Shown here one piece after another: positions 1,737 through 61,512 of a stretch of 64,000 nucleotides of DNA. Numbering within the stretch: position 1 is the stretch's first letter; each line of letters begins with the position of its first letter. The notes beneath the pieces were generated by a model. That model saw only the letters and a program-made list of their open reading frames with translations. It was not told where the DNA came from and searched no databases. A program made the translations under genes and the position numbers. This DNA is from Tubulanus polymorphus (lineage: Eukaryota > Animalia > Nemertea): assembly GCF_964204645.1 (NCBI RefSeq), contig NC_134026.1, positions 15,720,150 to 15,784,149 of the forward strand, given 5' to 3'.

Positions 1737-1770
1737 TGTAATGGTTTCCTCTAGGTTATGATGAACACAA
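1737..1770 (-). mobile_element. Terminal 34 bp of the Gypsy 3' LTR
   Basis: TGTAATGGTTTCCTCTAGGTTATGATGAACACAA matches 22448-22481 with 2 mismatches. Confidence 0.85.
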
Positions 1771-2128
1771 GTAATAGGGGTAATGGGCTTTCAAGCCAAA
1801 GGTCGAACGGTCGAGCTCATTAAAAAACAAAACATTAAAAGTAATTTAAAACTATAATATATTTTCATAACCGTGTGCATTTTATATTATAACTAAATAT
1901 TTATTCTAAGATATCAATAATTTAAAAAGCATATTGTATAAATCAATTTATTTACAATACACAAATTCATATAATGAAATATATTTTAATAATAATAATT
2001 ATTCTATTATTCAACTGAAATACACACGGTTATGAAAATATATTATAGTTTTAAATTACTTTTAATATTTGTTTTTAATGAACTCGACCGTTCAAACTTT
2101 AACCTGAAAGCCCATTACCCCTATTACT
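1770..2128. repeat. Left terminal fold-back palindrome (~360 bp) of the viral block
   Basis: 1770-1882 is the reverse complement of 2018-2127 (8 substitutions, two 1-nt indels). The AT-rich core pairs imperfectly. Confidence 0.95.
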
Positions 2129-2334
2129 CTTAAAATAATCATATACATGAATAACATTTAAATTGACAGATTATTCAATATAAAAGTATATATTTACAAC
2201 ATTATTTCAATATTCATATTTGTGTGAGTTAGATTTTGAAACATTAAAAGTGTTAGTAAAGTGTGATTGATATAATGCATGATATAAATCATTGAACTTC
2301 TAAAATCAATTTTAACAAAAAATTTAGTATTAAA

Positions 2335-3707
2335 ATGGAAGCAAATAAGTACTACTGTCCAACATGTAATATCAATATAGATAAATCCCAAAAAGCAAGA
2401 CACAATAAAACTAAAACACATTTAGAGAATAAATTGAAATTAGAATATGAAGATGATATATTAGAAACTAAATCAGATAAATTAAAGAATGAAAAAGAAA
2501 CATACAAATGTGATACATGTAATCAATCATTCAGTGATAAAAGATATTATAATGAACATTTAAAATCTAAAAGTCATATAAGAAATAAGAATAATGATAT
2601 TTTAGGTGAAGATTATTTTGATAAAGATAATGATAAGAAACAGAAGACAATTAAAAGCATAAAAAATAAATTAAACAATAAAAGACCATACATGGAAGAT
2701 GTAAGAAATTATATTAATTCATTAGATAATAAAAAAGATATAGAGATAACCGAAGCATTTAAAAGTGATATTGGCCCAGCAGCTATCGAGTTTAAATTTC
2801 ATAAAGGAAAAACATTAGAAGAAAATAAAAAACATTTAGAAAATATGAAAGAAATAATAAAAATAATAACTGATGTTGAATATCCTAAAATTAGTATATC
2901 TTCTAAAGTTAAATTCATAAAATCTGAAGATAAACCAATATATAATATAAATTCTCATTCACAACGTATCATTTCAAAATAACATATAGATGATAAATTA
3001 GATAAATGTTATAATGAAGTAAAAACTAAAATAGAAGAGAAATATTTTGAAGGATCTGGTTTAATATTTGATGAAATAATATTTATGACTTTACATGTTT
3101 ATAACACAAAATATAATAAGTTAACTAAATCAAAACCAATTGATGAAAATAACGTATCATACTATAAAGAACCAGATATTGAAGCATCGAGTTATATTAA
3201 ACTACCATTTAAAACTAATGCTGTTATAAATGTACAAAATGAAGATGATAAATGTTTTCTATGGGCTATAATAAGTTGTTTACACCCAGTTGAAGATTAT
3301 AAACAACATAGTTTTAGATTAACTCATTATAAACCATTTGAAAATAATTATAAGATAGATAAGTATCCTGTTAGAATTAAAAATATCCCAAAAATAGAAA
3401 GAGATAATAATATAAAGATAAGTGTATTTGATTTAATCAAATTACCAAATACAAAAGGTAACAATATAAAACATTATACATTAGAACCTTTATACCTATC
3501 AAAAGATTATGATTCAAATGATGTTATAGATATACTATATTATGAGAATCATTATATGTGGATTAAACAAATCGATTTATTTTTTAAATCAGAAAGTGAT
3601 CACCATAAAATATATCTTTGTAGAAAATGTTTACATAGATTCAGTAATGAAAGTACATTATTTAATCATAAACAATTATGTGAAAATCATGATTATTGTA
3701 AATTAGT
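2335..3707 (+). pseudogene. Protein-primed-type family B DNA polymerase, N-terminal part (copy A), with one nonsense codon and a 3' truncation
   Basis: ORFs 2335-2982 and 3085- are in frame across a TAA, where copy B has Gln. Two C2H2 fingers and motifs EGSGLIF, SSYIKLP, INVQNEDDKCFLWAI, HYMWIK and CRKCL. Confidence 0.85.
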
Positions 3708-4529
3708 TGTTTCTGCGCATCGAATGAAGTGTTATCATTTCCAATTATTGGGGATCTTGTTTCAACTTGCGCACCTAGAATACATATCAAATAAGTTCTA
3801 ATAGATTGATTTATTCTTTGTATACCAGCTTTAGTAAAACCTTCACCATTTTCTAAAATGAAATTAACCCAACCATTATTGTTTTGTTGTTGTATATTAT
3901 TATAATATTTTGGTAATTCATTCCAATTTAGTGTTCTTATATCTGAATTTGTCATTATTTTTCCAAATTCTTTAGTATATGATGTTCCTAATCCACCCAT
4001 TGTTCCAACTTTTGCTCTAAAATCTTTATTTGAATTAATATTAAATTCATTACATATTTTATAAAATTTAGAAAAATTAATATTATTATTCAATTCTTTA
4101 AAATATTTTGAACCTGGTAAAGGACATTCTAATTCATCTAATATTAATTTTATTTGAAAATATGTATGAAATCTAAAAAGTGATAACATCAATGGTAAAC
4201 TTGGTTTGTTTAAATGATCATTCCAACTAATTCCACATCCTGTTGTTGCGCAATAAACAGCAAAATTTAATTGGTTCTCCCAATACTTTATTAGATTTTA
4301 ATAACCATTGTTTTGCCTCATTTAAATTTTTGAAATTAATTGTATACACATGAAATATATTTTCCATCTTTACATGAAAATTATTACTTTCAGTAACATA
4401 AATATATAAATCAATTAATGAATTTAAAACTTCATTTCTATATGTAATATCTTTATTAAAATCTATTGCTGGAATATAATATTTAATTGATTTATTATAT
4501 TGGAAAGCTTTTGGAAAACTATCTGCCAT
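3707..4529 (-). pseudogene. Conserved Polinton-like virus gene X (QLNFAVYCATTGCG motif), frameshifted and 3'-truncated; function unknown
   Basis: ORFs 4227-4529 and 3662-4192 are joined by the reading YWENQLNFAVYCATTGCGISWNDH. A paralogous stretch lies at 17868-18410. Confidence 0.65.
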
Positions 4530-4545
4530 TTATATAATTAAAAAA

Positions 4546-4980
4546 TTAATAATTTATTAATTCTTTTAATAATTTATCTTGTTCTTCAACTGTTATATGA
4601 CCATTTAAACTTATTATATAATCTAGTGTATTCTTTAATTTATTAATTTCTTTTATATTAGTTTTAATTTTTTCTTTATTACTTTTTATATTTAATTTTG
4701 AACTTATACCAGTTAAAACACTTGAACTTAATCCTAATACACCAATTGATATAGCTAAAGGTGTTAATGGACTGAATATTGCTAGAAATGTTATTACAGA
4801 ACTAATTGTAACCGAACCACTTATAATCATATAATATATAATTTTACTTTTTAAATATTTTTTCTTTTTTATCTTAAGGTCACTTTCAAATTCTAAAATT
4901 TGTTTTTCTAAATATATTTTTAATTTAGTTTTACTGATATCATGAGGAATAATATCAATATTATCAACTTTATCATCCAT
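4546..4980 (-). CDS. Viral 144-aa protein with two predicted transmembrane segments flanked by coiled-coil-like regions
   Basis: Intact ORF with hydrophobic IIYYMIISGSVTISSVITFLAIF and LAISIGVLGLSSSVL. Starts at TAAATG. Confidence 0.7.
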   Translation of the reverse strand: MDDKVDNIDIIPHDISKTKLKIYLEKQILEFESDLKIKKKKYLKSKIIYYMIISGSVTISSVITFLAIFSPLTPLAISIGVLGLSSSVLTGISSKLNIKSNKEKIKTNIKEINKLKNTLDYIISLNGHITVEEQDKLLKELINY

Positions 4981-5000
4981 TTATTTAGCAAAAAAAATTA

Positions 5001-5423
5001 TTAATTAGTAAATCTATATGCTACAAATATAACAATAACAGTTCCGCCTAAAATCCATATTATTTCATATTTCTGTTGTTCATTACTTGGGGTATAATAA
5101 TCTGATAAATTAGGTTTGTATAGATGTAATTTTTCTTTATTTGTAACCGCGTTATATAAACTCATTGCATCATCAACTGATTGAAAATCTCTGTGTGAAA
5201 TCTTCTGATCATATAATTCTTTATTGATGTAATTCATATAGTTTTGTCTCTTTTCTCTATATTATTCTGCTGCTTTATTGTATTTCTCTAATGCTAAGTT
5301 ATGTCTTTTTTGTTCTGTTAATGATCCATTTTTATCAATATGCTTAAATAAATAACCACCACCAGTAAATGCTAAAGCGTTAACAATTGCCGATCCTATA
5401 ATAGTTATAACTGCAGAAGCCAT
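5001..5423 (-). pseudogene. Viral ~140-aa protein with hydrophobic N-terminus and C-terminal TM anchor; one internal stop
   Basis: MASAVITIIGSAIVNALAFTGGGYLF...EQKRHNLALE is in frame with ORF 5001-5237, which ends IIWILGGTVIVIFVAY. Confidence 0.7.
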
Positions 5424-5552
5424 TTATTTAGTAAAATAATTACGCATTTATATAGGAGGAATATATTTTTGTTTTTCTAAATAATCAATAGTTAAATTAG
5501 ATAAAGTAACTGCTTATGTTAATTTTAAAATATCATTTATATCAAATCTATC

Positions 5553-5622
5553 ATGTAGAAGGTAAAACATTATCAGATGTAGAAGGTATAACATTATCAG
5601 ATGTAGAAGGAATAACATTATT
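5553..5622 (-). repeat. 24-bp tandem repeat x3 encoding NV(I/L)PSTSD
   Basis: ATGTAGAAGG at 5553, 5577 and 5601. Confidence 0.85.
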
Positions 5623-5972
5623 ATCAATTTCATTACTTTAAATATCAACAACACCACTTTTATTATTATCTATTTTACTTATTCTATATTTGAATTGATT
5701 AAAGTATTCTCCAAAATACTTACTATAATCATCATAAGGTATTATATAATATATAACTGATATCATTTCACTTGGACTTTGTATTTCATATATTCCTCCT
5801 TCCATTTATTATAGAATTTTTTATTAAAATTAAAATTTTAATACATAACACTATTCAATTGAGAATTTATAATATTTACGATAGGTAGAACACAATATCC
5901 GTGTTGACGCGATGAGGAGAGAATCCCACAATGATAATAAAAAGTCCGAAGATGAAACTTCGAGATAGTAGT

Positions 5973-6019
5973 TTATTTCAACGTTTCGACTATATCCTAA
6001 TAGTCATCTTCAGGAATAA
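5973..6019 (-). ncRNA. Minimal type I hammerhead ribozyme (Penelope unit 1)
   Basis: Reverse complement reads TTATTC-CTGAAGA-T-GACTAT-TAGGAT-ATAGTC-GAAA-CGTT-GAAATAA. Confidence 0.8.
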
Positions 6020-6328
6020 TGAGATACTACAGAAATTATGAGATATATATACAATCCAGAGACAAAGAGACTAATTCAAGTAATCAGAGATGATACAAAC
6101 TAAAGGAAAATTAACGTAGAAACAGTTACACGCTAAAATAGATTAAAGGGAAGCAAACTAAGGGGTGATTATAAACAACAATAGTGAGTATGAATATAAA
6201 TGAAACTTAAAGTCAGTAGTAAAAAGAAAGACAAACTAAGGGGCACTTAAATTAAAACAAAGGTGAATACAAGTTAAGTCAGAGACGAAATTGATGAGAG
6301 AACAAATAACAAATAATCAAAGGGGAAA

Positions 6329-8737
6329 TCAAGTGTTGAGTTTAACCAGTTTACAGAGGAATTTTGATATAAGTTTATTATGGGGTGAAAAACCATTGTT
6401 AAGGTTTACAACGTTGTTGGAATTTTCAATAATTAATGCAGATTCCAAAATATGTCTTCTAGTTTTATCGCTGCAAGGGTAAACTAATTCAGCATTAGCA
6501 AAATCAAAATTGTGTGAAGTCTGAAAAACATGACTAGCAACTCCGCTTTCAGGTTTAAAGTTTTTTACATCTAATTTATGCTCTTTTATGCGTTGATTAA
6601 GATTCCGACCTGTTTCTCCTATATATACTTTGTCGCAAACTTTACAAGGAATTTTATAAATTCCATAGTTTAGGGATTCGGTTTTCGGTTTGTTGTTAAT
6701 CAATATGTTACTAAGTTTATTATTGTATTTAAAGATAAGTTGTTTATTTAGTGACCGAAGAGAAACTTTAGAATTCTCGAGGAAAGGTACATACGGTACA
6801 ATGATAGGCTGTTTATCGGTAGCCAACGTAGGAGTTCTAAGGTTGTTATTTCTAAAATGCGTAGTACGAGCTTTAAGTAGAGCTTTTTTCAATAGGAAAT
6901 CGGGGTAGGCAAGTTTTTTGAGAGATTGGTTGATATGGTGAATTTCATCGGGTAGAAATGAGGGGTCGCAAATTCTCAAAGCGCGAAGAAATAATCCTTG
7001 AGCTAAACCGAGTTTAATATCCGGAGAAGTAAAAGAGAAGTAATGGAGGTAGGATTCAGCGTTGGTAGGTTTCCTATAAACCGCGAATTTCAAAAAGGAT
7101 CCACAGTTAAAAATCAAAACATCCAGAAAAGGTATTTTACTATTAGATTCCCATTCATACGTAAAAGCCAGAGACGGGTAAAGGGAGTTTAAATATATAA
7201 GAAAGTTATCAACATTGAAGTCAAAGGGAACCAAAGCCAGAACATCGTCAACATATCTGAGCCAGATTTTAGGGTGAATATCAGTGTAAAGAGGCAATAT
7301 TTCAGATTCAACATGTTCTAGGAATAAATTAGCTAGAATAGGACTAAGAGGATTTCCCATAGCGATACCGAATGTCTGTTCGTAAAAACAGTTGTTGAAT
7401 TCAAAAAAGGAGTCCGTCGTACAAATAGAGATAAGGTCGATGATACAATCCGTAGGAATGCCGAAGTTAATGTTAAGTGATGGTAATCTGCGTTTTAAGA
7501 AATCAAGAGTAGGTCCAAGAGGAACATTGGTAAAAAGGGAAGTAACATCAAATGATATAAATTTGTCGTTGCCAGGGATAATATTCTTAATACGTTCAAG
7601 TAAGTGTTGATTATGGCGAAGGTGCGACGGAGAGAACGAACCGAGCACCGGAGATAATTGTTTCGCGAGAAATTTAGATAACCGGTATGTAGGAGAATTA
7701 CAATTGGAGACTATAGGGCGCAGTGGAACATTATCTTTATGAATTTTAGGCAATCCATAGATATATGGTAAAGAGGGAAGACGTGAATGGAACTTATTCA
7801 GAGTTTCTTTAGCGCAGGGGAAACGTTTAATAATATCCGAAAGACTTCTGTTGAAATTAGCTTGCATACGAGGAAGAGGATTCGATTTAAGTTTCTTATA
7901 AACACCAGGATTATCCAAGAGAGATTGCATTTTAACATTATAATTATCCAAATCTAAAATCACAATCTTGCCACCTTTATCAGCCTTAGATATTTTAATA
8001 GTCTTTAACTTCCGTAGTTCTTGGAGGGCGAGCCGAAATCGACGAGGTAGATATTCAAAAAGGTTCCTGTTGAGTTGATCGCATATAGCCTGTAGATTCA
8101 TGAATATAAAGTTATAGTCCAAACTGTTCGGAGATGATTTGCGATATTCCAATTGGGTGACAAAGTCTAAAACATGTTTATCTTGATGAGGAAGAGAAAA
8201 ATTCAAACCGTAGCCGAGAAGTTGACACTGAGTAGAAGATAACGTGGTTGAAGACAAATTTACTATGTTTTCGGTGTTGCTAAATCTAGTCCAAGGGCTG
8301 GAATCAATGAGTTTATTCAGTTGGTTGGTAAGATCCACGGACTTTCTGTGCTGATGATATTTTCCAGAGCCTTGAACAATAGTGGAGAGCGATTTCCAGA
8401 GGAATAGGTCCGGTACGTGTGACTTCAAATAATTTTGAGATTGACGGAATTTGTAGAACTGATAGTTACAGTCTTCCTTAGCACGATCTATAGCGAATTT
8501 GAGTTGCTTGTTAGCTTCGGGTGGAAACGCAGAGCTGGAGTCGTATTTCCAAATCCAAGAAAGTGATCGCGGAACCACTTTTTCGGCATAACACTCCTGA
8601 AGGAACTTGACTTTACTTTTAGCAGTCCTGGATTTGATATAGCATTTCTCATAATTTCGGAAGCTAGCGACGAGGTACGGGAACGTGAAGAAGAAGAATT
8701 TTAATACGATATTTCGATCCGTGGGTAGCATGATCAC
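6329..8737 (-). CDS. Penelope-like reverse transcriptase with C-terminal GIY-YIG endonuclease (intact, ~800 aa)
   Basis: Motifs KADKG, YGLPKIHK, PLRPIVS, SFDVTSLFTNVP, GIAMGNPLSP, RYVDD, FLDV and GIYKIPCKVCDKVYIGET. No Neptune-type zinc-finger linker, so Penelope/Poseidon-type. Confidence 0.97.
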   Translation of the reverse strand: MIMLPTDRNIVLKFFFFTFPYLVASFRNYEKCYIKSRTAKSKVKFLQECYAEKVVPRSLSWIWKYDSSSAFPPEANKQLKFAIDRAKEDCNYQFYKFRQSQNYLKSHVPDLFLWKSLSTIVQGSGKYHQHRKSVDLTNQLNKLIDSSPWTRFSNTENIVNLSSTTLSSTQCQLLGYGLNFSLPHQDKHVLDFVTQLEYRKSSPNSLDYNFIFMNLQAICDQLNRNLFEYLPRRFRLALQELRKLKTIKISKADKGGKIVILDLDNYNVKMQSLLDNPGVYKKLKSNPLPRMQANFNRSLSDIIKRFPCAKETLNKFHSRLPSLPYIYGLPKIHKDNVPLRPIVSNCNSPTYRLSKFLAKQLSPVLGSFSPSHLRHNQHLLERIKNIIPGNDKFISFDVTSLFTNVPLGPTLDFLKRRLPSLNINFGIPTDCIIDLISICTTDSFFEFNNCFYEQTFGIAMGNPLSPILANLFLEHVESEILPLYTDIHPKIWLRYVDDVLALVPFDFNVDNFLIYLNSLYPSLAFTYEWESNSKIPFLDVLIFNCGSFLKFAVYRKPTNAESYLHYFSFTSPDIKLGLAQGLFLRALRICDPSFLPDEIHHINQSLKKLAYPDFLLKKALLKARTTHFRNNNLRTPTLATDKQPIIVPYVPFLENSKVSLRSLNKQLIFKYNNKLSNILINNKPKTESLNYGIYKIPCKVCDKVYIGETGRNLNQRIKEHKLDVKNFKPESGVASHVFQTSHNFDFANAELVYPCSDKTRRHILESALIIENSNNVVNLNNGFSPHNKLISKFLCKLVKLNT

Positions 8738-8830
8738 GATAGGTAGAACACAATATCCGTGTTGACGCGATGAGGAGAGAATCCCACAATGATAATAAAA
8801 AGTCCGAAGATGAAACTTCGAGATAGTAGT

Positions 8831-8877
8831 TTATTTCAACGTTTCGACTATATCCTAATAGTCATCTTCAGGAATAA
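8831..8877 (-). ncRNA. Minimal hammerhead ribozyme (Penelope unit 2)
   Basis: Same sequence as 5973-6019. Confidence 0.8.
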
Positions 8878-9190
8878 TGAGATACTACAGAAATTATGAG
8901 ATATATATACAATCCAGAGACAAAGAGACTAATTCAAGTAATCAGAGATGATACAAACTAAAGGAAAATTAACGTAGAAACAGTTACACGCTAAAATAGA
9001 TTAAAGGGAAGCAAACTAAGGGGTGATTATAAACAACAATAGTGAGTATGAATATAAATGAAACTTAAAGTCAGTAGTAAAAAGAAAGACAAACTAAGGG
9101 GCACTTAAATTAAAACAAAGGTGAATACAAGTTAAGTCAGAGACGAAATTGATGAGAGAACAAATAACAAATAAATAATCAAAGGGGAAA

Positions 9191-11600
9191 TCAAGTGTTG
9201 AGTTTAACCAGTTTACAGAGGAATTTTGATATAAGTTTATTTTGGGGTGAAAAACCATTGTTAAGGTTTACAACGTTGTTGGAATTTTCAATAATTAATG
9301 CAGATTCCAAAATATGTCTTCTAGTTTTATCGCTGCAAGGGTAAACTAATTCAGCATTAGCAAAATCAAAATTGTGTGAAGTCTGAAAAACATGACTAGC
9401 AACTCCGCTTTCAGGTTTAAAGTTTTTTACATCTAATTTATGCTCTTTTATGCGTTGATTAAGATTCCGACCTGTTTCTCCTATATATACTTTGTCGCAA
9501 ACTTTACAAGGTATTTTATAAATTCCACAGTTTAGGGATTCGGTTTTCGGTTTGTTGTTAATCAATATGTTACTAAGTTTATTATTGTATTTAAAGATAA
9601 GTTGTTTATTTAGTGACCGAAGAGAAACTTTAGAATTCTCGAGGAAAGGTACATACGGTACAATGATAGGCTGTTTATCGGTAGCCAACGTAGGAGTTCT
9701 AAGGTTGTTATTTCTAAAATGCGTAGTACGAGCTTTAAGTAGAGCTTTTTTTCAATAGGAAATCGGGGTAGGCAAGTTTTTTGAGAGATTGGTTAATATG
9801 GTGAATTTCATCGGGTAGAAATGAGGGGTCGCAAATTCTCAAAGCGCGAAGAAATAATCCTTGAGCTAAACCGAGTTTAATATCCGGAGAAGTAAAAGAG
9901 AAGTAATGGAGGTAGGATTCAGCGTTGGTAGGTTTCCTATAAACCGCGAATTTCAAAAAGGATCCACAGTTAAAAATCAAAACATCCAGAAAAGGTATTT
10001 TACTATTATATTCCCATTCATACGTAAAAGCCAGAGACGGGTAAAGGGAGTTTAAATATATAAGAAAGTTATCAACATTGAAGTCAAAGGGAACCAAAGC
10101 CAGAACATCGTCAACATATCTGAGCCAGATTTTAGGGTGAATATCAGTGTAAAGAGGCAATATTTCAGATTCAACATGTTCTAGGAATAAATTAGCTAGA
10201 ATAGGACTAAGAGGATTTCCCATAGCGATACCGAATGTCTGTTCGTAAAAACAATTGTTGAATTCAAAAAAGGAGTCCGTCGTACAAATAGAGATAAGGT
10301 CGATGATACAATCCGTAGGAATGCCGAAGTTAATGTTAAGTGATGGTAATCTGCGTTTTAAGAAATCAAGAGTAGGTCCAAGAGGAACATTGGTAAAAAG
10401 GGAAGTAACATCAAATGATATAAATTTGTCGTTGCCAGGGATAATATTCTTAATACGTTCAAGTAAGTGTTGATTATGGCGAAGGTGCGACGGAGAGAAC
10501 GAACCGAGCACCGGAGATAATTGTTTCGCGAGAAATTTAGATAACCGGTATGTAGGAGAATTACAATTGGAGACTATAGGGCGCAGTGGAACATTATCTT
10601 TATGAATTTTAGGCAATCCATAGATATATGGTAAAGAGGGAAGACGTGAATGGAACTTATTCAGAGTTTCTTTAGCGGAGGGGAAACGTTTAATAATATC
10701 CGAAAGACTTCTGTTGAAATTAGCTTGCATACGAGGAAGAGGATTCGATTTAAGTTTCTTATAAACACCAGGATTATCCAAGAGAGATTGCATTTTAACA
10801 TTATAATTATCCAGATCTAAAATCACAATCTTGCCACCTTTATCAGCCTTAGATATTTTAATAGTCTTTAACTTCCGTAGTTCTTGGAGGGCGAGCCGAA
10901 ATCGACGAGGTAGATATTCAAAAAGGTTCCTGTTGAGTTGATCGCATATAGCCTGTAGATTCATGAATATAAAGTTATAGTCCAAACTGTTCGGAGATGA
11001 TTTGCGATATTCCAATTGGGTGACAAAGTCTAAAACATGTTTATCTTGATGAGGAAGAGAAAAATTCAAACCGTAGCCGAGAAGTTGACACTGAGTAGAA
11101 GATAACGTGGTTGAAGACAAATTTACTATGTTTTCGGTGTTGCTAAATCTAGTCCAAGGGCTGGAATCAATGAGTTTATTCAGTTGGTTGATAAGATCCA
11201 CGGACTTTCTGTGCTGATGATATTTTCCAGAGCCTTGAACAATAGTGGAGAGCGATTTCCAGAGGAATAGGTCCGGTACGTGTGACTTCAAATAATTTTG
11301 AGATTGACGGAATTTGTAGAACTGATAGTTACAGTCTTCCTTAGCACGATCTATAGCGAATTTGAGTTGCTTGTTAGCTTCGGGTGGAAACGCAGAGCTG
11401 GAGTCGTATTTCCAAATCCAAGAAAGTGATCGCGGAACCACTTTTTCGGCATAACACTCCTGAAGGAACTTGACTTTACTTTTAGCAGTCCTGGATTTGA
11501 TATAGCATTTCTCATAATTTCGGAAGCTAGCGACGAGGTACGGGAACGTGAAGAAGAAGAATTTTAATACGATATTTCGATCCGTGGGTAGCATGATCAC
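9191..11600 (-). pseudogene. Penelope-like RT/GIY-YIG ORF, unit 2, with a +1 frameshift in a homopolymer near 9746-9752
   Basis: ORFs 9735-11600 and 9191-9688 are near-identical to unit 1. Confidence 0.92.
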
Positions 11601-11693
11601 GATAGGTAGAACACAATATCCGTGTTGACGCGATGAGGAGAGAATCCCACAATGATAATAAAAAGTCCGAAGATGAAACTTCGAGATAGTAGT

Positions 11694-11740
11694 TTATTTC
11701 AACGTTTCGACTATATCCTAATAGTCATCTTCAGGAATAA
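11694..11740 (-). ncRNA. Minimal hammerhead ribozyme (Penelope unit 3)
   Basis: Same sequence as 5973-6019. Confidence 0.8.
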
Positions 11741-12053
11741 TGAGATACTACAGAAATTATGAGATATATATACAATCCAGAGACAAAGAGACTAATTCAA
11801 GTAATCAGAGATGATACAAACTAAAGGAAAATTAACGTAGAAACAGTTACACGCTAAAATAGATTAAAGGGAAGCAAACTAAGGGGTGATTATAAACAAC
11901 AATAGTGAGTATGAATATAAATGAAACTTAAAGTCAGTAGTAAAAAGAAAGACAAACTAAGGGGCACTTAAATTAAAACAAAGGTGAATACAAGTTAAGT
12001 CAGAGACGAAATTGATGAGAGAACAAATAACAAATAAATAATCAAAGGGGAAA

Positions 12054-13845
12054 TCAAGTGTTGAGTTTAACCAGTTTACAGAGGAATTTTGATATAAGTT
12101 TATTTTGGGGTGAAAAACCATTGTTAAGGTTTACAACGTTGTTGGAATTTTCAATAATTAATGCAGATTCCAAAATATGTCTTCTAGTTTTATCGCTGCA
12201 AGGGTAAACTAATTCAGCATTAGCAAAATCAAAATTGTGTGAAGTCTGAAAAACATGACTAGCAACTCCGCTTTCAGGTTTAAAGTTTTTTTACATCTAA
12301 TTTATGCTCTTTTATGCGTTGATTAAGATTCCGACCTGTTTCTCCTATATATACTTTGTCGCAAACTTTACAAGGTATTTTATAAATTCCACAGTTTAGG
12401 GATTCGGTTTTCGGTTTGTTGTTAATCAATATGTTACTAAGTTTATTATTGTATTTAAAGATAAGTTGTTTATTTAGTGACCGAAGAGAAACTTTAGAAT
12501 TCTCGAGGAAAGGTACATACGGTACAATGATAGGCTGTTTATCGGTAGCCAACGTAGGAGTTCTAAGGTTGTTATTTCTAAAATGCGTAGTACGAGCTTT
12601 AAGTAGAGCTTTTTTTCAATAGGAAATCGGGGTAGGCAAGTTTTTTGAGAGATTGGTTAATATGGTGAATTTCATCGGGTAGAAATGAGGGGTCGCAAAT
12701 TCTCAAAGCGCGAAGAAATAATCCTTGAGCTAAACCGAGTTTAATATCCGGAGAAGTAAAAGAGAAGTAATGGAGGTAGGATTCAGCGTTGGTAGGTTTC
12801 CTATAAACCGCGAATTTCAAAAAGGATCCACAGTTAAAAATCAAAACATCCAGAAAAGGTATTTTACTATTATATTCCCATTCATACGTAAAAGCCAGAG
12901 ACGGGTAAAGGGAGTTTAAATATATAAGAAAGTTATCAACATTGAAGTCAAAGGGAACCAAAGCCAGAACATCGTCAACATATCTGAGCCAGATTTTAGG
13001 GTGAATATCAGTGTAAAGAGGCAATATTTCAGATTCAACATGTTCTAGGAATAAATTAGCTAGAATAGGACTAAGAGGATTTCCCATAGCGATACCGAAT
13101 GTCTGTTCGTAAAAACAATTGTTGAATTCAAAAAAGGAGTCCGTCGTACAAATAGAGATAAGGTCGATGATACAATCCGTAGGAATGCCGAAGTTAATGT
13201 TAAGTGATGGTAATCTGCGTTTTAAGAAATCAAGAGTAGGTCCAAGAGGAACATTGGTAAAAAGGGAAGTAACATCAAATGATATAAATTTGTCGTTGCC
13301 AGGGATAATATTCTTAATACGTTCAAGTAAGTGTTGATTATGGCGAAGGTGCGACGGAGAGAACGAACCGAGCACCGGAGATAATTGTTTCGCGAGAAAT
13401 TTAGATAACCGGTATGTAGGAGAATTACAATTGGAGACTATAGGGCGCAGTGGAACATTATCTTTATGAATTTTAGGCAATCCATAGATATATGGTAAAG
13501 AGGGAAGACGTGAATGGAACTTATTCAGAGTTTCTTTAGCGGAGGGGAAACGTTTAATAATATCCGAAAGACTTCTGTTGAAATTAGCTTGCATACGAGG
13601 AAGAGGATTCGATTTAAGTTTCTTATAAACACCAGGATTATCCAAGAGAGATTGCATTTTAACATTATAATTATCCAGATCTAAAATCACAATCTTGCCA
13701 CCTTTATCAGCCTTAGATATTTTAATAGTCTTTAACTTCCGTAGTTCTTGGAGGGCGAGCCGAAATCGACGAGGTAGATATTCAAAAAGGTTCCTGTTGA
13801 GTTGATCGCATATAGCCTGTAGATTCATGAATATAAAGTTATAGT
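12054..13845 (-). pseudogene. Penelope-like ORF, unit 3, 5'-truncated, with two homopolymer frameshifts
   Basis: ORFs 12599-13828 and 12280-12552. Confidence 0.92.
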
Positions 13846-14548
13846 TACTTTTCCGGATATTAAACTCGGTTTAGCTCAAGGATTATTTCTTCGCGCTTTG
13901 AGAATTTGCGACCCCTCATTTCTACCCGATGAAATTCACCATATTAACCAATCTCTCAAAAAACTTGCCTACCCCGATTTCCTATTGAAAAAAGCTCTAC
14001 TTAAAGCTCGTACTACGCATTTTAGAAATAACAACCTTAGAACTCCTACGTTGGCTACCGATAAACAGCCTATCATTGTACCGTATGTACCTTTCCTCGA
14101 GAATTCTAAAGTTTCTCTTCGGTCACTAAATAAACAACTTATCTTTAAATACAATAATAAACTTAGTAACATATTGATTAACAACAAACCGAAAACCGAA
14201 TCCCTAAACTGTGGAATTTATAAAATACCTTGTAAAGTTTGCGACAAAGTATATATAGGAGAAACAGGTCGGAATCTTAATCAACGCATAAAAGAGCATA
14301 AATTAGATGTAAAAAACTTTAAACCTGAAAGCGGAGTTGCTAGTCATGTTTTTCAGACTTCACACAATTTTGATTTTGCTAATGCTGAATTAGTTTACCC
14401 TTGCAGCGATAAAACTAGAAGACATATTTTGGAATCTGCATTAATTATTGAAAATTCCAACAACGTTGTAAACCTTAACAATGGTTTTTCACCCCATAAT
14501 AAACTTATATCAAAATTCCTCTGTAAACTGGTTAAACTCAACACTTGA
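13846..14548 (+). pseudogene. Inverted 3' Penelope segment (RT C-terminus plus GIY-YIG)
   Basis: ORF 13898-14548 equals the C-terminal 216 aa of unit 1. The 3' UTR continues to 14966. Confidence 0.92.
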
Positions 14549-14857
14549 TTTCCCCTTTGATTATTTGTTATTTGTTCTCTCATCAATTTCGTCTCTGACT
14601 TAACTTGTATTCACCTTTGTTTTAATTTAAGTGCCCCTTAGTTTGTCTTTCTTTTTACTACTGACTTTAAGTTTCATTTATATTTATACTCACTATTGTT
14701 GTTTATAATCACCCCTTAGTTTGCTTCCCTTTAATCTATTTTAGCGTGTAACTGTTTCTACGTTAATTTTCCTTTAGTTTGTATCATCTCTGATTACTTG
14801 AATTAGTCTCTTTGTCTCTGGATTGTATATATATCTCATAATTTCTGTAGTATCTCA

Positions 14858-14904
14858 TTATTCCTGAAGATGACTATTAGGATATAGTCGAAACGTTGAA
14901 ATAA
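14858..14904 (+). ncRNA. Minimal hammerhead ribozyme (inverted segment)
   Basis: CTGAAGA at 14864-14870, stem II GACTAT/ATAGTC, GAAA at 14890-14893, palindromic AACGTT and stem I TTATTC/GAAATAA. Confidence 0.82.
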
Positions 14905-16212
14905 ACTACTATCTCGAAGTTTCATCTTCGGACTTTTTATTATCATTGTGGGATTCTCTCCTCATCCTTATAATATTTAATTGCGCGTCAGATATAATAT
15001 AAATGTGCATTTTGTAATTTAAACCTCCTTTTTTCTTTTTCATGAATAATTGTATCCCATCTCTAGTGTTCCGTAGTTTTTTTCCCAGAACCATGTAATA
15101 AGTTATCTTCAGTTGTTCTAAAATCTAACCATAATGCATATTCATTACCGATATAATAATCTATTTGATTAATATTACAATCTTCAGATGATTTTACTTT
15201 TTCATTCATAAATTGTTTTCTAATTTCTGGCCACTGATCTATCATTCTCATTCCTTGACAGAATATTTTATTTGCTATACCTTCGATAGTTATTTCTACT
15301 TTTGATATTTCCGGATTATAATAATTAACAACATTTATTGCACCATTAGACTATGTAGCAATGGTAAAAAATATTAATATACCTTTAATAGATCTTCTTG
15401 GGAAGTTAATATTCTCATTGATTATTTCATCATTTGCATTAATAGTTACAATTTTAAATTTTTCGATATAATCATATAATAATGAAAATCCTTGATTATA
15501 TTGAGTTTGAATTGTGCTAGCAATATTTTCATCAGTTACTGTATCATATTCAAAACATATATTCGATAATTTATAACCCATACTTTTAACAACGCTTGAC
15601 AATAAAATTTCATTAACAGGAGCAAATGTTATTTCATATATAATATCTTCTTGTATAACATATTTATATAAAGGCGCATTATTATTTATCAATTCAAAGT
15701 CTAATGGAATTTTATATTTACTACCATAAATCTTTTTTTATCAAATTATCTGTAGCATTAGTTACTACTGCATTATTAGCTTCTGATCTTAATTTATTTT
15801 GGTTTTCTGATTGGATGCCTTGAAATATCATATCATTTCTATTTTCTTTTGTTAACCATAAATCTTTGTAATGCATAAATAAATTATAATCATCTAATGA
15901 GAAAACTGTTTCTGGTCCAATCTTTATAGATAATTTTTTAATCAAATATCTCCCAACATTATCTATAACATAATTATTATTATTGCCAGTTACATTTATA
16001 TCAGCCGATAAATGAATACTATTTGGAACATAAAAAGTATTTGTATTTAATCTCGGGATTCTAACATATAAAGTTTGATTGGGACTAATATTTGAAGGAT
16101 TATGAGTAATTATATGATGAGATCTCTCTGCTTTAATAGCATTAGATATTCTAGAACTCTTAGAAGGATTGATATAACTCCCACTCATTTATTTCAGAGA
16201 AAAAAAATAATT

Positions 16213-18413: not shown

Positions 18414-20767
18414 TCATATTACCCGAATAGATGAACATACATCTTTAACATATTCATTTTTTAATTCATCATAGAATTGTTCTTTTAATAATTCAGTTAT
18501 ATTGAAATCATTATGCGATTTATAAAAACTATATGGAATTGCTCCTTTATATCTCATTAATTGAAAATCATCATTATTTGGATAGTGCTGTTTTAATATT
18601 TTTAATTCATCATCAACTAATGATTTTGATAAATTATCTAATGAACTACTTAAAAATCTATATGAGTCTATAAATCTTAGACACCCAAATTGGAAAGATA
18701 TATGTGTTTTAGCTAACATTTTGAATTTATAAGTTGTTATTTAATCTTTTGATCTATTTGAATTTAATCTTTCTATTTCATTATTGATTTCTTCTATTTT
18801 ATGACATAGCTGTTTGATAAATAAATGAGCATCATACCCCGATAAATTATGAAATATAACTGCAACAAAATTAATTTACTTAGCTTGTAAGTTACAATTC
18901 TCATGTGCTGCACCTCTAAACTTTCCATTCAAATGATCATGGTCTCTAACTTTTTTATCTTTATAATTAAATAGTAATTCACAATATTAACATTTATCTG
19001 AAAACTCAAATTCTTCTTTATCTTCTTCTGTCATTATAATTTCTTTATTTTTATTTAACAATTTATTAAATTTTATTTCATATTCAATTAATAAGTCACA
19101 AAAATGATTGATAACATTTTCATTTCTATAATGATAATATTCACTTTCAATTAGTTCTGGATAATCAGATTTTATATATAATCCAAAAGCTGCAGCACTT
19201 TGATGAATCTTTTTAATAGTATTTGTTATTAGAGGATCTGAATAATCAATTACATCATTTTCATTAGAATTTAATTTCTTTCTTTTATGATATATTTCTT
19301 TTCTATCTTGATCAGTTAATTCCTTATTTAGTGATTCAAAATCACCATATATATTATAAATGGTACTATATTCTTGTAATCATATTTTTGGAATTCTAAT
19401 ACTTTATCCTTTTCATTTGGTAAAACTATTTTACAATAATCATGATTATCACATAATTGTTTATGATTTAATAATGTACTTTCGTTGCTGAATCTATGTA
19501 AACATTTTCTACATAGATATATTTTATTGTGGTTATTTTCTGTTCTAAAAAATAAATCGATTTGTTTAATCCACATATAATGATTTATAATATAATATAT
19601 CTATAACACCATTTGAATCATAAACTTTTGATAGGTATAAAGGCTCTAATGTAAAATGTTCAATTTAATTGCCTTTTGTTTTTGGTAATTTGATTAAATC
19701 GAATACATTTATTTTTACATTATTATCTCTTTCTATTTTTGGAATATCTTTAATTCTAACTGGATAATTATCTATCTTATAATTATTTTCAAATTGTTAA
19801 TCTAAAACTATGTGTTATATCTTCTGTTGGATGTAAGCAACTAATTATTGACCATAGAAAACATTTATCATCAGAATTTTGTACATTTATAACAGCATTA
19901 GTTTTAAATGGTAATTTGATATAACTTGATCCATTTATATTACCATCTTTATAATATGATAAATTATTTTCATCTATTGGTTTTGATTTAGTTAACGTAT
20001 TATATTTTGTGTTATAAACATGTAAAGTCATAAATATTATTTCATCAAATATTAAACCAGATCCTTCAGAATATTTCTCTTCCATTTTATTTTTTATTTC
20101 ATTATAACATATATCTAATCTATCATCTATATGCTGTTTAGATATAATATGTTGTGAATGGGAATTTATATTATATATTGGTTTATCTTCAGATTTTAAA
20201 AATTTAACTTTAGCCGATATACTAATCTTAGGATATTCTACGTCTGTAATCATTTTTATAATATTGTTCATATTTTCTAAATGTTTTTTATTTTCTTCTA
20301 ATGTTTTGCCTTTATGAAATTTGAATTCAATAGCAGCTGGTCCAATATCACTTTTGAATGCTTCGGTTATTTCTATTTATTTTTTATTATCTAATGAATG
20401 AAAATAATTTCTAACATCTTCCATTTATGTTTAATTTATTTCTTATTCTTTTAATTGTCTTCTGTTTCTTATCATTATCAAAATAATCTTCACCTAAAAT
20501 ATCATTATTCATATTTCTAATATGACTTTTAGATTTTAAATGTTGTTCATAATATCTTTTTTCACTGAATGATTGATTACATGTATCACATTTGTATGTT
20601 TCTTTTTCATTCTTCAATTCCTCTAATTTATTTTCTAATATATCATCTTTATATTCTAAGTTTAATTTATTTTCTAAATGTGTTTTAGTTTTATTATGTC
20701 TTGCTTTTTGAGATTTATCTATATTAGCTTTACATGTTGAACAGTAGTACTTCTTATTTGCTTCCAT
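18414..20767 (-). pseudogene. Protein-primed-type family B DNA polymerase (copy B): C2H2 fingers, endonuclease-VII-like motif and exonuclease part; polymerase core deleted
   Basis: Fragments with YGDFES, VRDHDHLNGKFRGAAHENCNL, FHNLSGYDAHLFI, RFIDSYRFLSSSLDNL and KGAIPY. Several frameshifts. Confidence 0.9.
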
Positions 20768-20838: not shown

Positions 20839-20950
20839 GAGTAATAGGGATATTAGGGGTTCATAACAAAGGTCGAAAAATAAATTCGAGTGTGCGAGTG
20901 TTTTTCGACCCTTCGACCTTTGGTATGAACCCCTATTATCCCTATTACTC
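20839..20950. repeat. Right terminal fold-back palindrome (112 bp) of the viral block
   Basis: GAGTAATAGGGATATTAGGGGTTCATAACAAAGGTCGAA pairs with TTCGACCTTTGGTATGAACCCCTATTATCCCTATTACTC (2 mismatches). Confidence 0.95.
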
Positions 20951-22420
20951 GCATCGAGACCCTTCATTGAGGCATCTACTCGTAAGACTGTTTCCTTATG
21001 CGGATCAAAGTAAGCTAGGCTCGTTGAGCTGCAAATCGCTTCCTTGATCTTGTTCGTGGCTTGTAATCCACTCGAACTTTGAGTCTTTTTTTAGCAGCTC
21101 CCTCAAGGCGGATGTCTGGGCGGACATATTGGCAACGAATGGGCCCATATATGTGACCATGCCAAGAAAGGATTGCAGCTGTTGTACGTCGGTGGGCGAC
21201 TTCGTGGATTTTATGGCCTTGACCTTTCCTGGGTCTGGGGTTGCACCGTTCTCATCAAAAATGACACCAAAAATATCGATGCTGTCCCTGCCGATATTGC
21301 ATTTGTCCTAATTGAAAACGAGACCTTCCATGCGTGCGACCTTCATCAGAGTCAGCAGGCTTTTGTCATGCTCTTGCCTGGTTTTCTTAGGACTACGACG
21401 ACATCTGCGATGCCTTCACATCCGTCGCATCTCTCGAGGATCTGATCCATTCTATGCTGAAAGACATCTTGTGACATCCGTAAGCCGAAGGGCATCCGTT
21501 TAAAATTATATCTCCCGAAAGGGCTGTTGAAACTGGACTGCTCATCCATCTTTACGGGCCAGTATCCGTGTTTAGCATCCAGTTTGGAAAAGTATTTGCT
21601 CCCTGCCAGTCTAGGCTTGATCTCCTCAATCGTTGGGGTCATATGATGACATCTCTTGACTGCACGGTTGAGGTCCTTCGTGTCAAGGCATATTCGTAAC
21701 TTCCCATTGGATTTTCTACTGTATGCAAGGGAATTGACCCAATCTGTGGGTTCAGTAACTGAGGTTATGATGTCACTCTGCTCCATGGAGTCTAAGGCAT
21801 GCTTTATCTCGTCCCTGAGTAGGATTGGCTCTCACCTCGGAGGGTGTATAGTGGGTTGTATGCGCTCATCTAGGACGATGTGATATTCTCCCTTGAATTC
21901 TCTGATTCATTCGAACCAGTCCGGAAATAGGACTTTTAGGTCATGCTTCGCCGATGGCCTGTCCATGGGGACTGTCGTCTTCTCGGCCTGACCGCTTGTT
22001 GGGGTCAGTGTTGTTTCCTGAATCTCACAGTGCAATGTTACTAGCCGCAATTCTCTGCTCGTCGGTAGCCCTATTATGACTCAGTCACATGGAATATTGT
22101 CTTACAGACGTTTCGTCCATACGTACACTCAATCTCGCATATTCTGTGTTGTCCGATCTCTGCTCCACCGTACGCTGTTAATTTTGTGTTACTGTGTTTT
22201 GTTACTCCCGGCAACGGGTATCCATCTGGTGACACATTTGTGGGAAACATGTTCCTGTACAGGCGGAGTGGTAGCAGGTTGCCTTGCCGCCAGCGTTGCA
22301 TTTCACTTTCTACCGATGTCAATATTGACAGTCGCAAAAATTTCGTCTCTACCGTCTTTTGTGCTGACTGTATCAAGGGCCAGTGTCTCGAACTTCAAGG
22401 ATTCGATCTCTTCATCACTT
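20950..22420 (-). pseudogene. Gypsy pol remnant: protease region, RT and start of RNase H; gag largely deleted
   Basis: EPTDWVNSL, GKLRICLD.KDLN, FSKLDAKHGYW, RMPFGL, LQSFLGMVTY and LAYFDPHKETVLRVDASMKGL (cut at the viral terminus). Confidence 0.92.
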
Positions 22421-22434
22421 CGTCATAGGGTTTT

Positions 22435-22447
22435 ACTTCTGACACCA
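22435..22447 (-). promoter_or_regulatory. Primer-binding site complementary to the tRNA-Leu 3' end
   Basis: TGGTGTCAGAAGT directly follows the LTR end ...TTACA on the minus strand. Confidence 0.85.
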
Positions 22448-22681
22448 TGTAATGGTTTCCTCCACGTTATGATGAACACAAGAAAACGCTGTCTTGATAT
22501 TATTATCAACTGATATATTTGTGTCTACGTGTCATGTCTACGTGTCGTGTGGTTGCAGCATAAGAGAGCGAAAAAGAAGCTGTACTACATAATATGACAC
22601 AATAAATATAGGTTACAATAGATGATCCTAATGGGATGACATGAGACAGCTAATGGGAGTGTGCTAATGGGATATGTTACA
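22448..22681 (-). mobile_element. Gypsy 5' LTR (~234 bp)
   Basis: TGTAA...TTACA termini and adjacent PBS. Flank CACGC (22682-22686) versus TACGC (1732-1736) as TSD. Confidence 0.85.
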
Positions 22682-28078: not shown

Positions 28079-29281
28079 CTAGGGGTCCGGGGACGACATG
28101 CCCACTTTGGAAGTGGTTTCAAATGCTCAACAATTTAACAATATTCAATGCCCCTGGTGACCATATACAAAAACCAATGACCTTGAAACTCACCACAATC
28201 ATAGAACATGTCAGCAGCTACGATTTTGTAATCGATTATGACAACAAAATACGCCTCGTTATCTATTTAATATGGAAATACTAAGTTATTCAACTATTCA
28301 ACGCCCCCTGGCGACCATATTCTAAACCCAATGACCTTGATACTCACCACAATCATAGAACATGTCATGAGCTACAACTTTGCAATTGTCCATGGTAACA
28401 AAATATGGCTAGGTATCAGTATGATAAGGAAATACTAAGTTATTCTACTATTCAACACCCCTGGTGACCATATTGAATAACCTATGACCTTGAAACTCAC
28501 CACAATCATCGACTCATATCTCATGAGCTACACCTTTGCAATCGATTGTGGTAACAAAACATGGGTAGGTAAAAATATATAATATAGAAATACAAAATCA
28601 TTGTATTATTCAATGCCCCCTGGTGGCCATATATACGAAAACCAATGACCTTGAAACTCACCACAATCATAGAACACGTTATGCGCTGCAACTTTCCAAT
28701 TGATTGTGGTAACAAAATATGGTTAGGTATCAATATAATGTGGAAAAACTTTTTTCAACCCACAAATGAGTACACCACCTACTGATGACACCACGATGGT
28801 TGCCAGTTGCATTATAATTGGCTGATCAAAAATACCTGTCTGAGGTATTAAAGATCTCTTTCCATAGAATATCCACCAAAAATTTCAATGAAAAATGGCA
28901 CACCAGTAAGCAGCTACAGGACACAGAATTCGGGCCAAAATTGACATTTGTGGGCACAAAAAAGGCCATCTTGAGTCTTATCAACCCAATTTTCTTATGC
29001 TGATGGGCCCTTGGGGATTCAAATATATACGAAATATATACGAAAGATCAAGGTAATTGATCGAAAATTTCCCTTCAAAAATGTGTAAAAGGTGCTGATC
29101 TTGGCCAACAACAATTCTGCCAGTCGGTCATCCTGATGCTGACAGGGGCCAGCTTTTGGGCTGAAGATGTGTCTAGGGTAGATACATGTGTAACCCAAAT
29201 ATCAAGACATTACAGAAGTGTCTTTAAATCTTCCCAAGAAACTGGATTCCGTCTGGATTCCGAAAAGTCCCAAGTGGGCTA
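28079..29281 (-). mobile_element. Helentron-associated non-autonomous element, family 1, with ~154-bp internal tandem repeats
   Basis: CTAGGGGTCC end, subterminal inverted repeats GCCCACTTTGGA/TCCCAAGTGGGC and four internal repeat units. Colinear with 58398-59635. Confidence 0.8.
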
Positions 29282-58397: not shown

Positions 58398-59635
58398 CTA
58401 GGGGTCCAGGGACGCCATGCCCACTTGGGAAGTGGTTTCAAATGCTCAACAATCTAACAATTTCAACATTCAACGCCCCCTGGTGACCATTTACAAAAAC
58501 CAATGACCTTGAAACTCACCACAATCATAGAACATGTCAGCAGCTACGATTTTGTAATTGATTGTGATAACAAAATATGCCTCGTTACCAATTCAATATG
58601 GAAATACTAAGTCATTCTACTATTCAACGCCACCTGGTGACCATATTCAAAACCCAATGACTCGAAACTCACCACACTCATAGAACATGTCATGAACTAC
58701 AACTTTGCAATTGATCATGGTAACAAAATATGCCTAGGTACCAATATAATAAGGAAATACTAAGTTATTCTACTATTCAACGCCCCCTGGTGACTATATA
58801 GAAAAACTTATGTCCTTCAAACTCGCAACAATCATAGATGATGTCATGAGCTACAACTTTCCAATTGATTGTGGTTACAAAATATGCATAGGTAAGAATA
58901 TAATAAAGAAATGCTAAGATATTGTATTATTCAACGCCCCCTGGTGGCCATATATGAAATCCAATTACCTTGAAACTCACCACAATCATAGAACACGTTA
59001 TGAGCTACAACTTTCTAATTGATTGTGGTACCAAAATACGCTTAGGTATCAATATAATGTGGAAAAACTTTTTCCCACTTACGAATGAGTACTGGTGACA
59101 CCAAGATGGCCGCCAATTGCGTCATAATTGGCTGATGGAAAATACCTGTCTCAGGTATAAAACATCCCTTTCCAAAGAATACCCATCACAAATTGTAATG
59201 AGAAATGGCAAACCAGTAGGAAGCTACAGGACTCAGAATTCGGGCCAAAATTAACATTTTTGGGCACTAAAAAGGTCATAGTACGGCCATCTTGAGTCCG
59301 ACCGACCCAATTTTTGATATGCTGATGGGCCCTGGAGGGATTCACATATAACCGAAAGATCAAGGTAATTGATCAAAGTGTCTTCAAAATTTCCCTCAAA
59401 AAGTTCAAAAACGTGTAAAAAGTGCTGATTTTGGCGAACAACAATGGCTGCCAGTCGGCCATCTTGATTCTGACAGGGCCAGTTTTTGGGCTGAAGATGT
59501 GTCTAGGGTAGATACATGTGTAACCCAAATATCAAGACGTTACCTTGAAGCGTAACGGACGGACGGATGAACGGACGGACGACGGACGAAAAGTGAACGC
59601 AATAGCCCGCTGGGACTAAAGTCCCAAGTGGGCTA
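58398..59635 (-). mobile_element. Complete family-1 Helentron-associated element (HINE/pearl-like)
   Basis: On the minus strand: 5' subTIR with inverted repeat, (GTCC)n, core, four ~154-bp repeats (starts 58469, 58623, 58776, 58930), 3' subTIR, small GTCC-CT-GGAC hairpin and CTAG-T end. Confidence 0.85.
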
Positions 59636-60486
59636 AAAACATAGTGCAGTTTGAGTAGATAATGTGATACAGGCATTACTGGTTATTTCTACAGAGAAAA
59701 TCGCTCACTCGCACTGTCAAGAAATAAAATCTGGGCTAGTGGTGAATCCGCATTAGAGACAATAATCTACCGATTCTTTCCCAGCAGTATAAACCAGTAG
59801 CGCAGTTCCTTATCAACTACTTTTGAATGTATCAGTGCACGAGCACCTGCGAGGATAGTGATGGGGATAACGATTCATTGCTGAATAAAACAGATAGAAA
59901 CGATTCACTGGCATGTAATTCATTGTGTCACTGCTGACAAAAATTCACAGCAAATCACTGCCAATGATAAGTCAAATTCACTGCCAATGTGCTACCTAGT
60001 AAAGACATGATACCAAAAGACTACGGATAGAGCCAAAAACATCAAACACCTGCTGAAGAACCAAAAAGCACCAACTAGGTATATCAATACTTCATATTAA
60101 TAATTAATATGAATTAATATTTTAATTCATTTATTAAATATGAACTGCTTCTCATCATAAGACTTAAAAAGCCTATTAAAATCTAAAGGCCCATCTACAC
60201 TACAAACTAATGCCTTATTATCTGTCTACACTATTGACAAAATACCGCATTAACGATACCGCCTTATCTAACGACGGTATCGCCACCCATGTTACGATAA
60301 ACCGCCTTATAATAATGCGGCATTAAGCGTAGTTTAGAGGCGATGCCGCATTAGAATAAGTCAGTAATTGTATATATCTTGTTTCAAGCCAAAGGTCGGG
60401 AGGTCGGGTGAGTAGAAAAACAAATTCAAGTCGGTGCAAGATGTCGCCCCGGTGTTTTACTAAATAAAGTAAATTTTGATTTGAAT

Positions 60487-61264: not shown

Positions 61265-61512
61265 CTAGGGGTCCAGGGACACCATGCCCACTTGGGAAGT
61301 GGTTTCAAATGCTCAACAATCTAACAATTCAATATTCATTGCCCCCTGGTGATCATATACAAAAACCAATGACCTTGAAACTCATCACAATCATAGAACA
61401 TGTCAGCAGCTATGATTTTGTAATTGATTGTGATCACAAAATATGCCTCGTTGCCAATTTAATATGGAAATACTAAGTTATTCTACAATCCAATGCCCCC
61501 TGGTGACCATAT
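61265..61512 (-). mobile_element. Terminal fragment of a family-1 element
   Basis: CTAGGGGTCCAGGGACACCATGCCCACTTGGGAAGTGG plus about one repeat unit. Confidence 0.8.

Follow-up and report, generated by a model that had tools for sequence, protein, structure and literature searches.

The closest described relatives of the element reported here are the animal Polintons, Mavericks and adintoviruses, with which it shares a pPolB, an rve integrase (seen in a relative, L002), a capsid-like gene and an AG...CT-type end, as far as the accessible parts of PMC8097293, PMC8502044, PMC10748475 and PMC11131425 describe them. Ends of animal Polintons are given as (AGT)2 or (AG)3, the former in the accessible text of PMC8097293, whereas the element described here ends in AGTAAT, and neither "hairpin" nor "palindrom" occurs in the main text of the four papers. 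According to the available portion of PMC11161782, the details of Polinton replication and terminal-protein removal remain unclear. Palindromes in terminal repeats have been described for virophages and PLVs of Halocafeteria seosinensis in a 2026 preprint whose accessible text proposes hairpin priming (bioRxiv 10.64898/2026.07.28.741278); there, as here, the palindrome lies within the terminal repeat, beside the host junction of an integrating Polinton-related element. However, in the subtype shown in a figure those palindromes are 52 nt long, and they preferentially accompany non-pPolB replication genes, whereas the fold-backs described here span 110-360 bp, are imperfect and have a spacer, occur with a pPolB that carries a predicted terminal protein (TP) domain and a viral OTU protease (vOTU) domain, and have arms that covary between elements.

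Further parallels come from parvoviruses and Streptomyces. The ITR of AAV is a terminal palindrome whose 3' end can fold flush and prime, in the parts of PMC11575299 available, but here no Rep/HUH nickase was seen among the 20 window ORFs scanned and no sign of flip/flop in the read tables, and the element is double-stranded and integrating, with a terminal protein domain. The TP-capped telomeres of Streptomyces likewise combine terminal palindromes with protein priming and use fold-back for end repair, though they are an unrelated system with several short palindromes, Tpg/Tap proteins and an internal origin (both points from the accessible text of PMC5449611). In the literature searched, hairpin or palindromic Polinton ends turned up only as the 2026 protist preprint; Repbase, supplements and the 2006 founding paper could mention them. 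What is new here is the pairing of a terminal fold-back with a TP-bearing pPolB, terminal palindromes with a proposed priming role being already known (2026).

The window, i.e., the whole stretch of 64,000 nucleotides analysed here, contains an incomplete element of this kind between 1770 and 20949, together with its flanks and one related arm further away:

1737..1769, minus strand: left flank, formed by the final 33 bp of a Gypsy-type LTR (94% identity with 22448-22480)
1770..1883, plus strand: outer arm of the left fold-back, the element terminus; starts AGTAAT, with two GGTCGA-like boxes at about 1801-1815
1884..2016, no strand: AT-rich core with the remnant of a central stem (about 1932-1957), without the tip sequence carried by other copies
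2017..2128, minus strand: inner arm, which repeats the terminus imperfectly in inverted orientation and ends in ATTACT
2129..2334, plus strand: spacer to the pPolB, of a length that varies among copies; its first bases are common to the right-hand end
2335..3708, plus strand: 5' part of the left pPolB (zinc fingers, predicted TP domain, predicted vOTU), interrupted by an in-frame stop (2980-2982) and ending abruptly at about 3708
3707..5878, minus strand: internal small ORFs of the element, on the strand opposite to the left pPolB
5879..14967, no strand: Penelope-type retroelement array (RT and GIY-YIG) inside the element, with a 12-bp duplication (5867-5878 and 14968-14979)
15063..16188, minus strand: putative major capsid protein gene in three pieces (Pfam Capsid_N E 0.004, below cut-off)
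18414..20767, minus strand: second pPolB, represented only by a frameshifted 5' part that shares 88% identity with the left copy across 1.4 kb
20840..20949, minus strand: second, shorter homologous terminal fold-back of 110 bp, with the element end at 20949
20950..22681, minus strand: right flank, a Gypsy-type element with RNase H, RT, protease and 5' LTR, within whose RNase H region the Polinton ends
60363..60425, plus strand: lone outer-type terminal arm of a related element, with no matching inner arm and no linked genes seen

An earlier note, made from the letters alone, had described a fold-back at 1770-2132 with nearly perfect arms of about 113 bp. Folding of the plus strand gives one long stem of 359 bp from 1770 to 2128, with z values of -21.7 on the plus and -23.1 on the minus strand and none of 100 shuffles as stable, so that the fold-back itself is real but ends four bases earlier than proposed. 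Of the 114 columns in the alignment of its arms (1770-1883 and 2017-2128), 102 match, 10 are mismatched and 2 contain a gap. The doubling of the terminus motif was likewise seen correctly apart from a shift by one position, as AGTAATAGGGG stands at 1770 and, inverted, at 2118-2128, and the pPolB does begin about 200 bp inward (ATG at 2335, 206 bp away). Across the 64 kb, the terminal 18-mer pattern occurs with zero mismatches at 1770, 2111-2128, 20840 and 20932-20949, plus one further match at three mismatches, where 0.31 matches are expected by chance; Rfam has no match within 1600-2500. In all three complete fold-backs, i.e., those at the left and right ends in the window and that of the relative L005, the terminal base pairs flush with the inner arm. 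The 133-bp core (1884-2016, 88% AT) behaves differently from the arms: its self-complementarity score was reached by 430 of 1000 dinucleotide shuffles and its folding energy was equalled by 96 of 200 shuffles on the plus and 110 of 200 on the minus strand. Because this self-complementarity is at chance level, the looser pairing that had been described toward a tip near 1944 is not seen in the window copy.

Raw reads of one run (X4, about 12 in 100 read) and contigs of three others (X1-X3) place this fold-back in the wider population of copies. Depth in X4 rises from about 1-11 in the flank to about 3,600 just inside 1770, and 1,966 and 481 reads (2,447 in total) leave the sequence at 1770 and 1769 with an agreement of 0.33-0.36, as expected for unrelated flanks. 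Position 1770 is therefore the integration end of a multicopy family, for which we infer at least hundreds of copies. At the centre of the fold-back, 557 X4 reads break off at 1939 and 566 resume at 1946 (agreement 0.94), 381 reads contain the joint 1939-1946, and the X1-X3 contigs behave likewise. By eye, the loose ends at these two positions could pair with one another along some 16 letters, and they are richer in GC than the core. Most copies therefore have a tip hairpin that the window copy is without; the small stem near 1944 is its remnant, so that the axis of symmetry had been placed correctly even though the pairing around it had not. Apart from this, 597 X4 reads exit the outer arm at 1826 with an agreement of 0.71, which marks either another type of fold-back or the far end of the element.

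The element is of Polinton type because its pPolB has full-length homologues and its relative L002 encodes an rve integrase; a broken capsid-like gene is also present. The pPolB pieces in the window, both truncated, are 60-77% identical to full-length polymerases of 1,365 aa, and the best three of nine matches among full-length homologues reach 68-71%. The capsid-like gene at 15063-16188 is in pieces, and its match to Capsid_N (E 0.004) stays under the Pfam cut-off. No rve integrase matched in the window, which holds a deleted copy, whereas L002 has one downstream of its pPolB with a Pfam rve match above cut-off. A second end of the same family lies at 20949 in opposite orientation, again with a fold-back ahead of a truncated pPolB; this fold-back (20840-20949, folding z -9.9) had been overlooked. 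The starts of both pPolBs share 88% identity across 1,417 columns, and both ends begin with AGTAATAGGG, inverted to each other as AG...CT-type terminal inverted repeats with read-supported junctions. The reads at 20949 do not form an independent test, as most of the 1,822 junction reads there are family reads seen already at the left end, which match the initial 45 bases common to both ends.

A 6-bp target site duplication is missing at the locus (AACACA vs CGCATC), and the locus is rearranged because its two flanks derive from separate parts of a single Gypsy copy that lacks its middle (the RNase H and LTR ends of this copy were read by eye). The locus represents either two copies that a deletion has fused or a composite unit that is non-autonomous. 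Between 1770 and 20949, two pPolB-proximal ends with different types of fold-back face outward, and two partial copies of one internal gene are present (76% aa identity over 87 residues). The Penelope-type array (5879-14967) consists of three near-identical tandem units of about 2.86 kb and a 1.1-kb inverted piece, and with an identity of 99% or more it is very young relative to the surrounding Polinton. Elsewhere in the window, the lone arm at 60363-60425 directly follows an unrelated, GC-richer, imperfect 110-bp hairpin (60257-60366), a family of 154-bp repeats occupies 28136-28792, 58462-59111 and 61328-63866 inside dispersed elements, and a DUF1759 (BEL/Pao gag-like) fragment lies at 696-980, left of the Gypsy copy. 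The repeat content suggests an animal host.

Relatives were collected in a metagenome scan in which at least 80 of 88 confirmed loci were kept, giving 81 together with one locus from viral contigs. Of these, 57 have at least 400 bp ahead of the pPolB frame, though many may not reach an element end. A long fold-back far above shuffles was present in two of the 57: L005 (229 vs at most 48) and the unrelated L062. The L005 fold-back (190-446, AGT...ACT, z -11.7) has a GC-rich tip and lies ahead of a pPolB that is about 65-77% identical to the window pieces. L003 likely carries a homologous fold-back that is cut off, its contig starting within a 16-bp stem and an inverted AGTAAT arm following at 75-120. 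This arm was the best match outside the training arms among 767,302 scanned windows (25.8 vs 23.8 for the next), a modest margin that its position and orientation back. Positions 1-330 of L003 as a whole do not fold better than shuffles (z 0.77) because the contig includes no more of the fold-back than its inner arm and tip. The contigs of L002 and L004 end too close upstream to include the terminus, and among the more distant loci listed a homologous arm was not found. In viral contigs, the window pPolB piece, the terminus pattern, the L002 integrase and alignment A4 had no match, and alignment A2 yielded one distant locus, L001, without a long fold-back.

Several other fold-backs were set aside. 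That of L062 is at the contig start and has no AGT end; those of L006 (370 bp) and L075 (42 bp) have unrelated ends; those of L061, L064 and L065/L066 look like separate insertions in broken copies; and that of L018 is an inverted duplicate of the gene start. In L018, this duplicate (168-1339) consists of pPolB N-terminal coding sequence transcribed away from the pPolB, with a 25-bp stem in between. An ORF of 121-128 aa of no known family lies between fold-back and pPolB in L003 (338-724) and L005 (571-936) and is not present at the window ends.

Comparison of the three complete fold-backs over their first 47 columns revealed 11 joint changes of both arms between the left end and L005, 5 between the left and right ends and 9 between the right end and L005, vs 1, 0 and 0 arm-specific shared changes in the same comparisons. 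Joint changes thus far outnumber arm-specific ones, which means that the arms are kept alike within each element, in a count that rests on three elements. Outer arms are more conserved between elements than inner arms, with 38, 30 and 31 vs 29, 25 and 25 matches of 46-47. The fold-backs themselves differ in length (110, 257 and 359 bp) and in their core. Among transition mismatches within arms, 10 of 12 leave a G-T pair on the strand whose 3' end is at the terminus (two-sided p 0.039; 7 of 8 at the left end and 3 of 4 in L005, with no transition mismatches in the right-hand fold-back). This bias is what one would expect if that strand were single-stranded or folded, though the count is small and deamination alone could explain it.

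Such alike arms could also be a functionless by-product, in which copy-back or template switching made the inverted copy of the terminus and pairing-driven conversion has kept its arms similar ever since. Free variation of fold-back length and core, the faster divergence of inner than outer arms between elements and the loss of the tip in the window copy all sit well with this idea, and accidental annealing is offered as an alternative for the protist palindromes in the accessible text of bioRxiv 10.64898/2026.07.28.741278. However, it would leave unexplained why the fold-back is kept end-flush at the same place in elements whose pPolBs differ by about 30%, and why a GC-rich tip stem is present in L005 and, by reads, in the window's own family; we therefore consider it fairly unlikely.

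The polymerase bears on whether a hairpin has taken over from protein priming. Residues 121-480 of the intact L003 polymerase were modelled (41-row alignment, pLDDT 79.9), and the model contains two domains: the first resembles the little-finger/PAD fold known from Y-family polymerases (Z 8.0, rmsd 2.9, 104 aligned), the second viral OTU proteases (Z 7.8, rmsd 3.3, 101 aligned). These Z values are middling, yet the modelled domain pair is exactly the TP-vOTU layout of PMC11161782, the available text of which puts the linking residue in the loop that joins the second helix of the TP to its final strand. The predicted linking residue here is a Gly-flanked Ser of the alpha2-beta4 loop that at least 90% of the rows share, and the vOTU Cys and His are invariant across the alignment. 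The left window copy keeps Ser, Cys and His, and the piece of the right copy compared keeps Ser and Cys, which points to a predicted intact TP-vOTU module in the family's pPolB. Since TP fold, predicted linking Ser and vOTU Cys and His are all there, the hairpin appears not to have replaced the terminal protein, and the view that the polymerase is only nominally protein-primed finds no support in these predicted features. Pfam PF02945 (endonuclease-VII-like) matches three of six pPolB homologues, one of them above cut-off. This domain is a candidate for reopening a hairpin-closed product, but inserted HNH domains occur in other Polinton polymerases as well, according to the accessible text of PMC10748475.

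What lies behind the inner arm separates further alternatives, as a free MITE or a flipped palindrome would place host DNA there. In X4, depth is unbroken across 2128 (1,858 at 2118, 2,028 at 2138 and about 1,760 in the pPolB), and joints tie 2133-2163 to 2282-2295, just ahead of the pPolB. No loose end at 2128 was among the six best-supported X4 rows (smallest 309 reads; 361 further rows), vs 2,447 reads at the outer end; if rows are ranked by support, as we assume, any single further junction at 2128 makes up at most about 11% of the end junctions. A MITE, i.e., a mini-Polinton, nested at the end of the element would have the shape observed, with terminal repeats around an AT-rich spacer and both arms beginning with the integration motif, and it would account for the lone related arm at 60363. 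Yet behind the inner arm there is neither a Polinton end motif nor a duplicated target, depth runs on into spacer and pPolB, the same arrangement recurs in L005 and likely in L003, and neither of the two window fold-backs is free-standing, which makes a nested MITE very improbable. A widespread MITE unlinked to the pPolB, which the earlier note had named as the observation that would speak against its interpretation, leaves no sign in the reads, an indirect test that a minority of free copies could escape. The place of the fold-back at the element terminus is borne out by the reads at 1769/1770, and fold-back and pPolB are linked in the window as in L005.

The reads also speak to the polarity of the arms. 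Positions 1796, 1797, 1804 and 1816, at which the arms differ, are absent from the 40 variable sites listed (137 further), a fifth difference at 2096 is private to the window copy (1,800 of 1,806 reads differ), and the orientation of the tip relative to the core is uniform (agreement 0.94). This suggests that outer and inner arm types are fixed, with the proviso that 150-base reads inside an arm fit both arms. Opposite-strand joints at the right end have at most 16 reads each, fit differences in arm length and were not counted as flips.

Such fixed polarity is hard to reconcile with an end that has replaced protein priming and flips between two orientations, whether as an opened hairpin telomere or as a rolling hairpin of the AAV type. 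The geometry invites this comparison, with an end palindrome followed by unique sequence as in AAV (available text of PMC11575299), a flush 3' end and an imperfect, AT-rich interior. However, the read tables point, indirectly, to one polarity, without any sizeable group of reads that pass from the inner arm into host DNA; the element ends at the base of the stem; arm roles are fixed in three elements; and the predicted TP and vOTU are intact. No Rep/NS1 HUH nickase was found in a Pfam scan of 20 window ORFs of this incomplete element. A poxvirus-type arrangement, in which both arms lead into the genome, does not apply either, as one arm ends at host DNA (2,447 reads) and the other leads to the pPolB in the integrated form seen here. 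Replacement of protein priming by a rolling hairpin is accordingly a far-fetched reading of this end, and of the parvovirus-like interpretation it is the flush 3' geometry that stands.

In the reading that we prefer, though we see the evidence on it as evenly balanced, the co-evolving fold-back in the terminal 110-360 bases of this high-copy Polinton folds on the displaced strand, so that its 3' end primes copying beside protein priming. TP-primed strand displacement would free a single strand whose 3' end is the terminus; its terminal 3' bases would pair flush with the inner arm and form a local primer-template junction that needs no distant inverted repeat; extension of the folded 3' end would turn the strand into a duplex without pairing to the far end; and the outer arm would remain the fixed end for integration. 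Homologous fold-backs at the same position before the pPolB at the right end of the window, in L005 and likely in L003 favour this reading, as do the position at a true, high-copy end, the covariation of the arms, the flush terminal base, the G-T bias and the predicted TP-vOTU module. Protein priming with ordinary terminal repeats is thought to be sufficient, and the joint changes of the arms can stem from gene conversion or copy-back errors free of function. Among the 57 loci, many of which may not reach an end, no more distant relative shows a homologous fold-back, and length and core vary widely among the elements with one. The product of self-priming would moreover be a duplex closed by a hairpin, which would have to be nicked or resolved, and no Rep/HUH gene was seen among the window ORFs scanned. 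The same priming idea has been put forward for other elements in the accessible part of bioRxiv 10.64898/2026.07.28.741278.

The fold might instead serve the care of the end, protecting or repairing a single-stranded 3' end or presenting it to the TP-pPolB or integrase without priming a whole strand, in the manner of Streptomyces overhangs. The predicted intact TP module and the fixed roles of outer and inner arm agree with this, and fold-back repair of truncated TP-capped ends has been shown in Streptomyces (available text of PMC5449611). The Streptomyces case, however, involves short clustered palindromes and unrelated proteins. Any family B polymerase could directly extend a 3' end that is paired flush across 40-110 bp, which counts against a role in end care alone, and we rate such a role as quite unlikely. 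Self-priming beside protein priming could also take the specific form of a hybrid route, in which TP primes the first strand, a snap-back hairpin primes the displaced strand and the endonuclease-VII-like domain of the pPolB resolves the resulting hairpin or cruciform; this more detailed proposal is doubtful.

Fold-backs of this kind split short-read contigs and can pass for MITEs, so that they are easily missed in repeat annotation. The tie between terminal palindromes and pPolB loss that the accessible text of the 2026 protist preprint suggests is broken here. For the question of how Polintons exit, are copied and shed their terminal protein before integration, a conserved, covarying hairpin next to a predicted intact TP-vOTU module offers a concrete and testable substrate. 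If the hybrid route were true, a single element would link the adenovirus mode of end replication with the hairpin mode.
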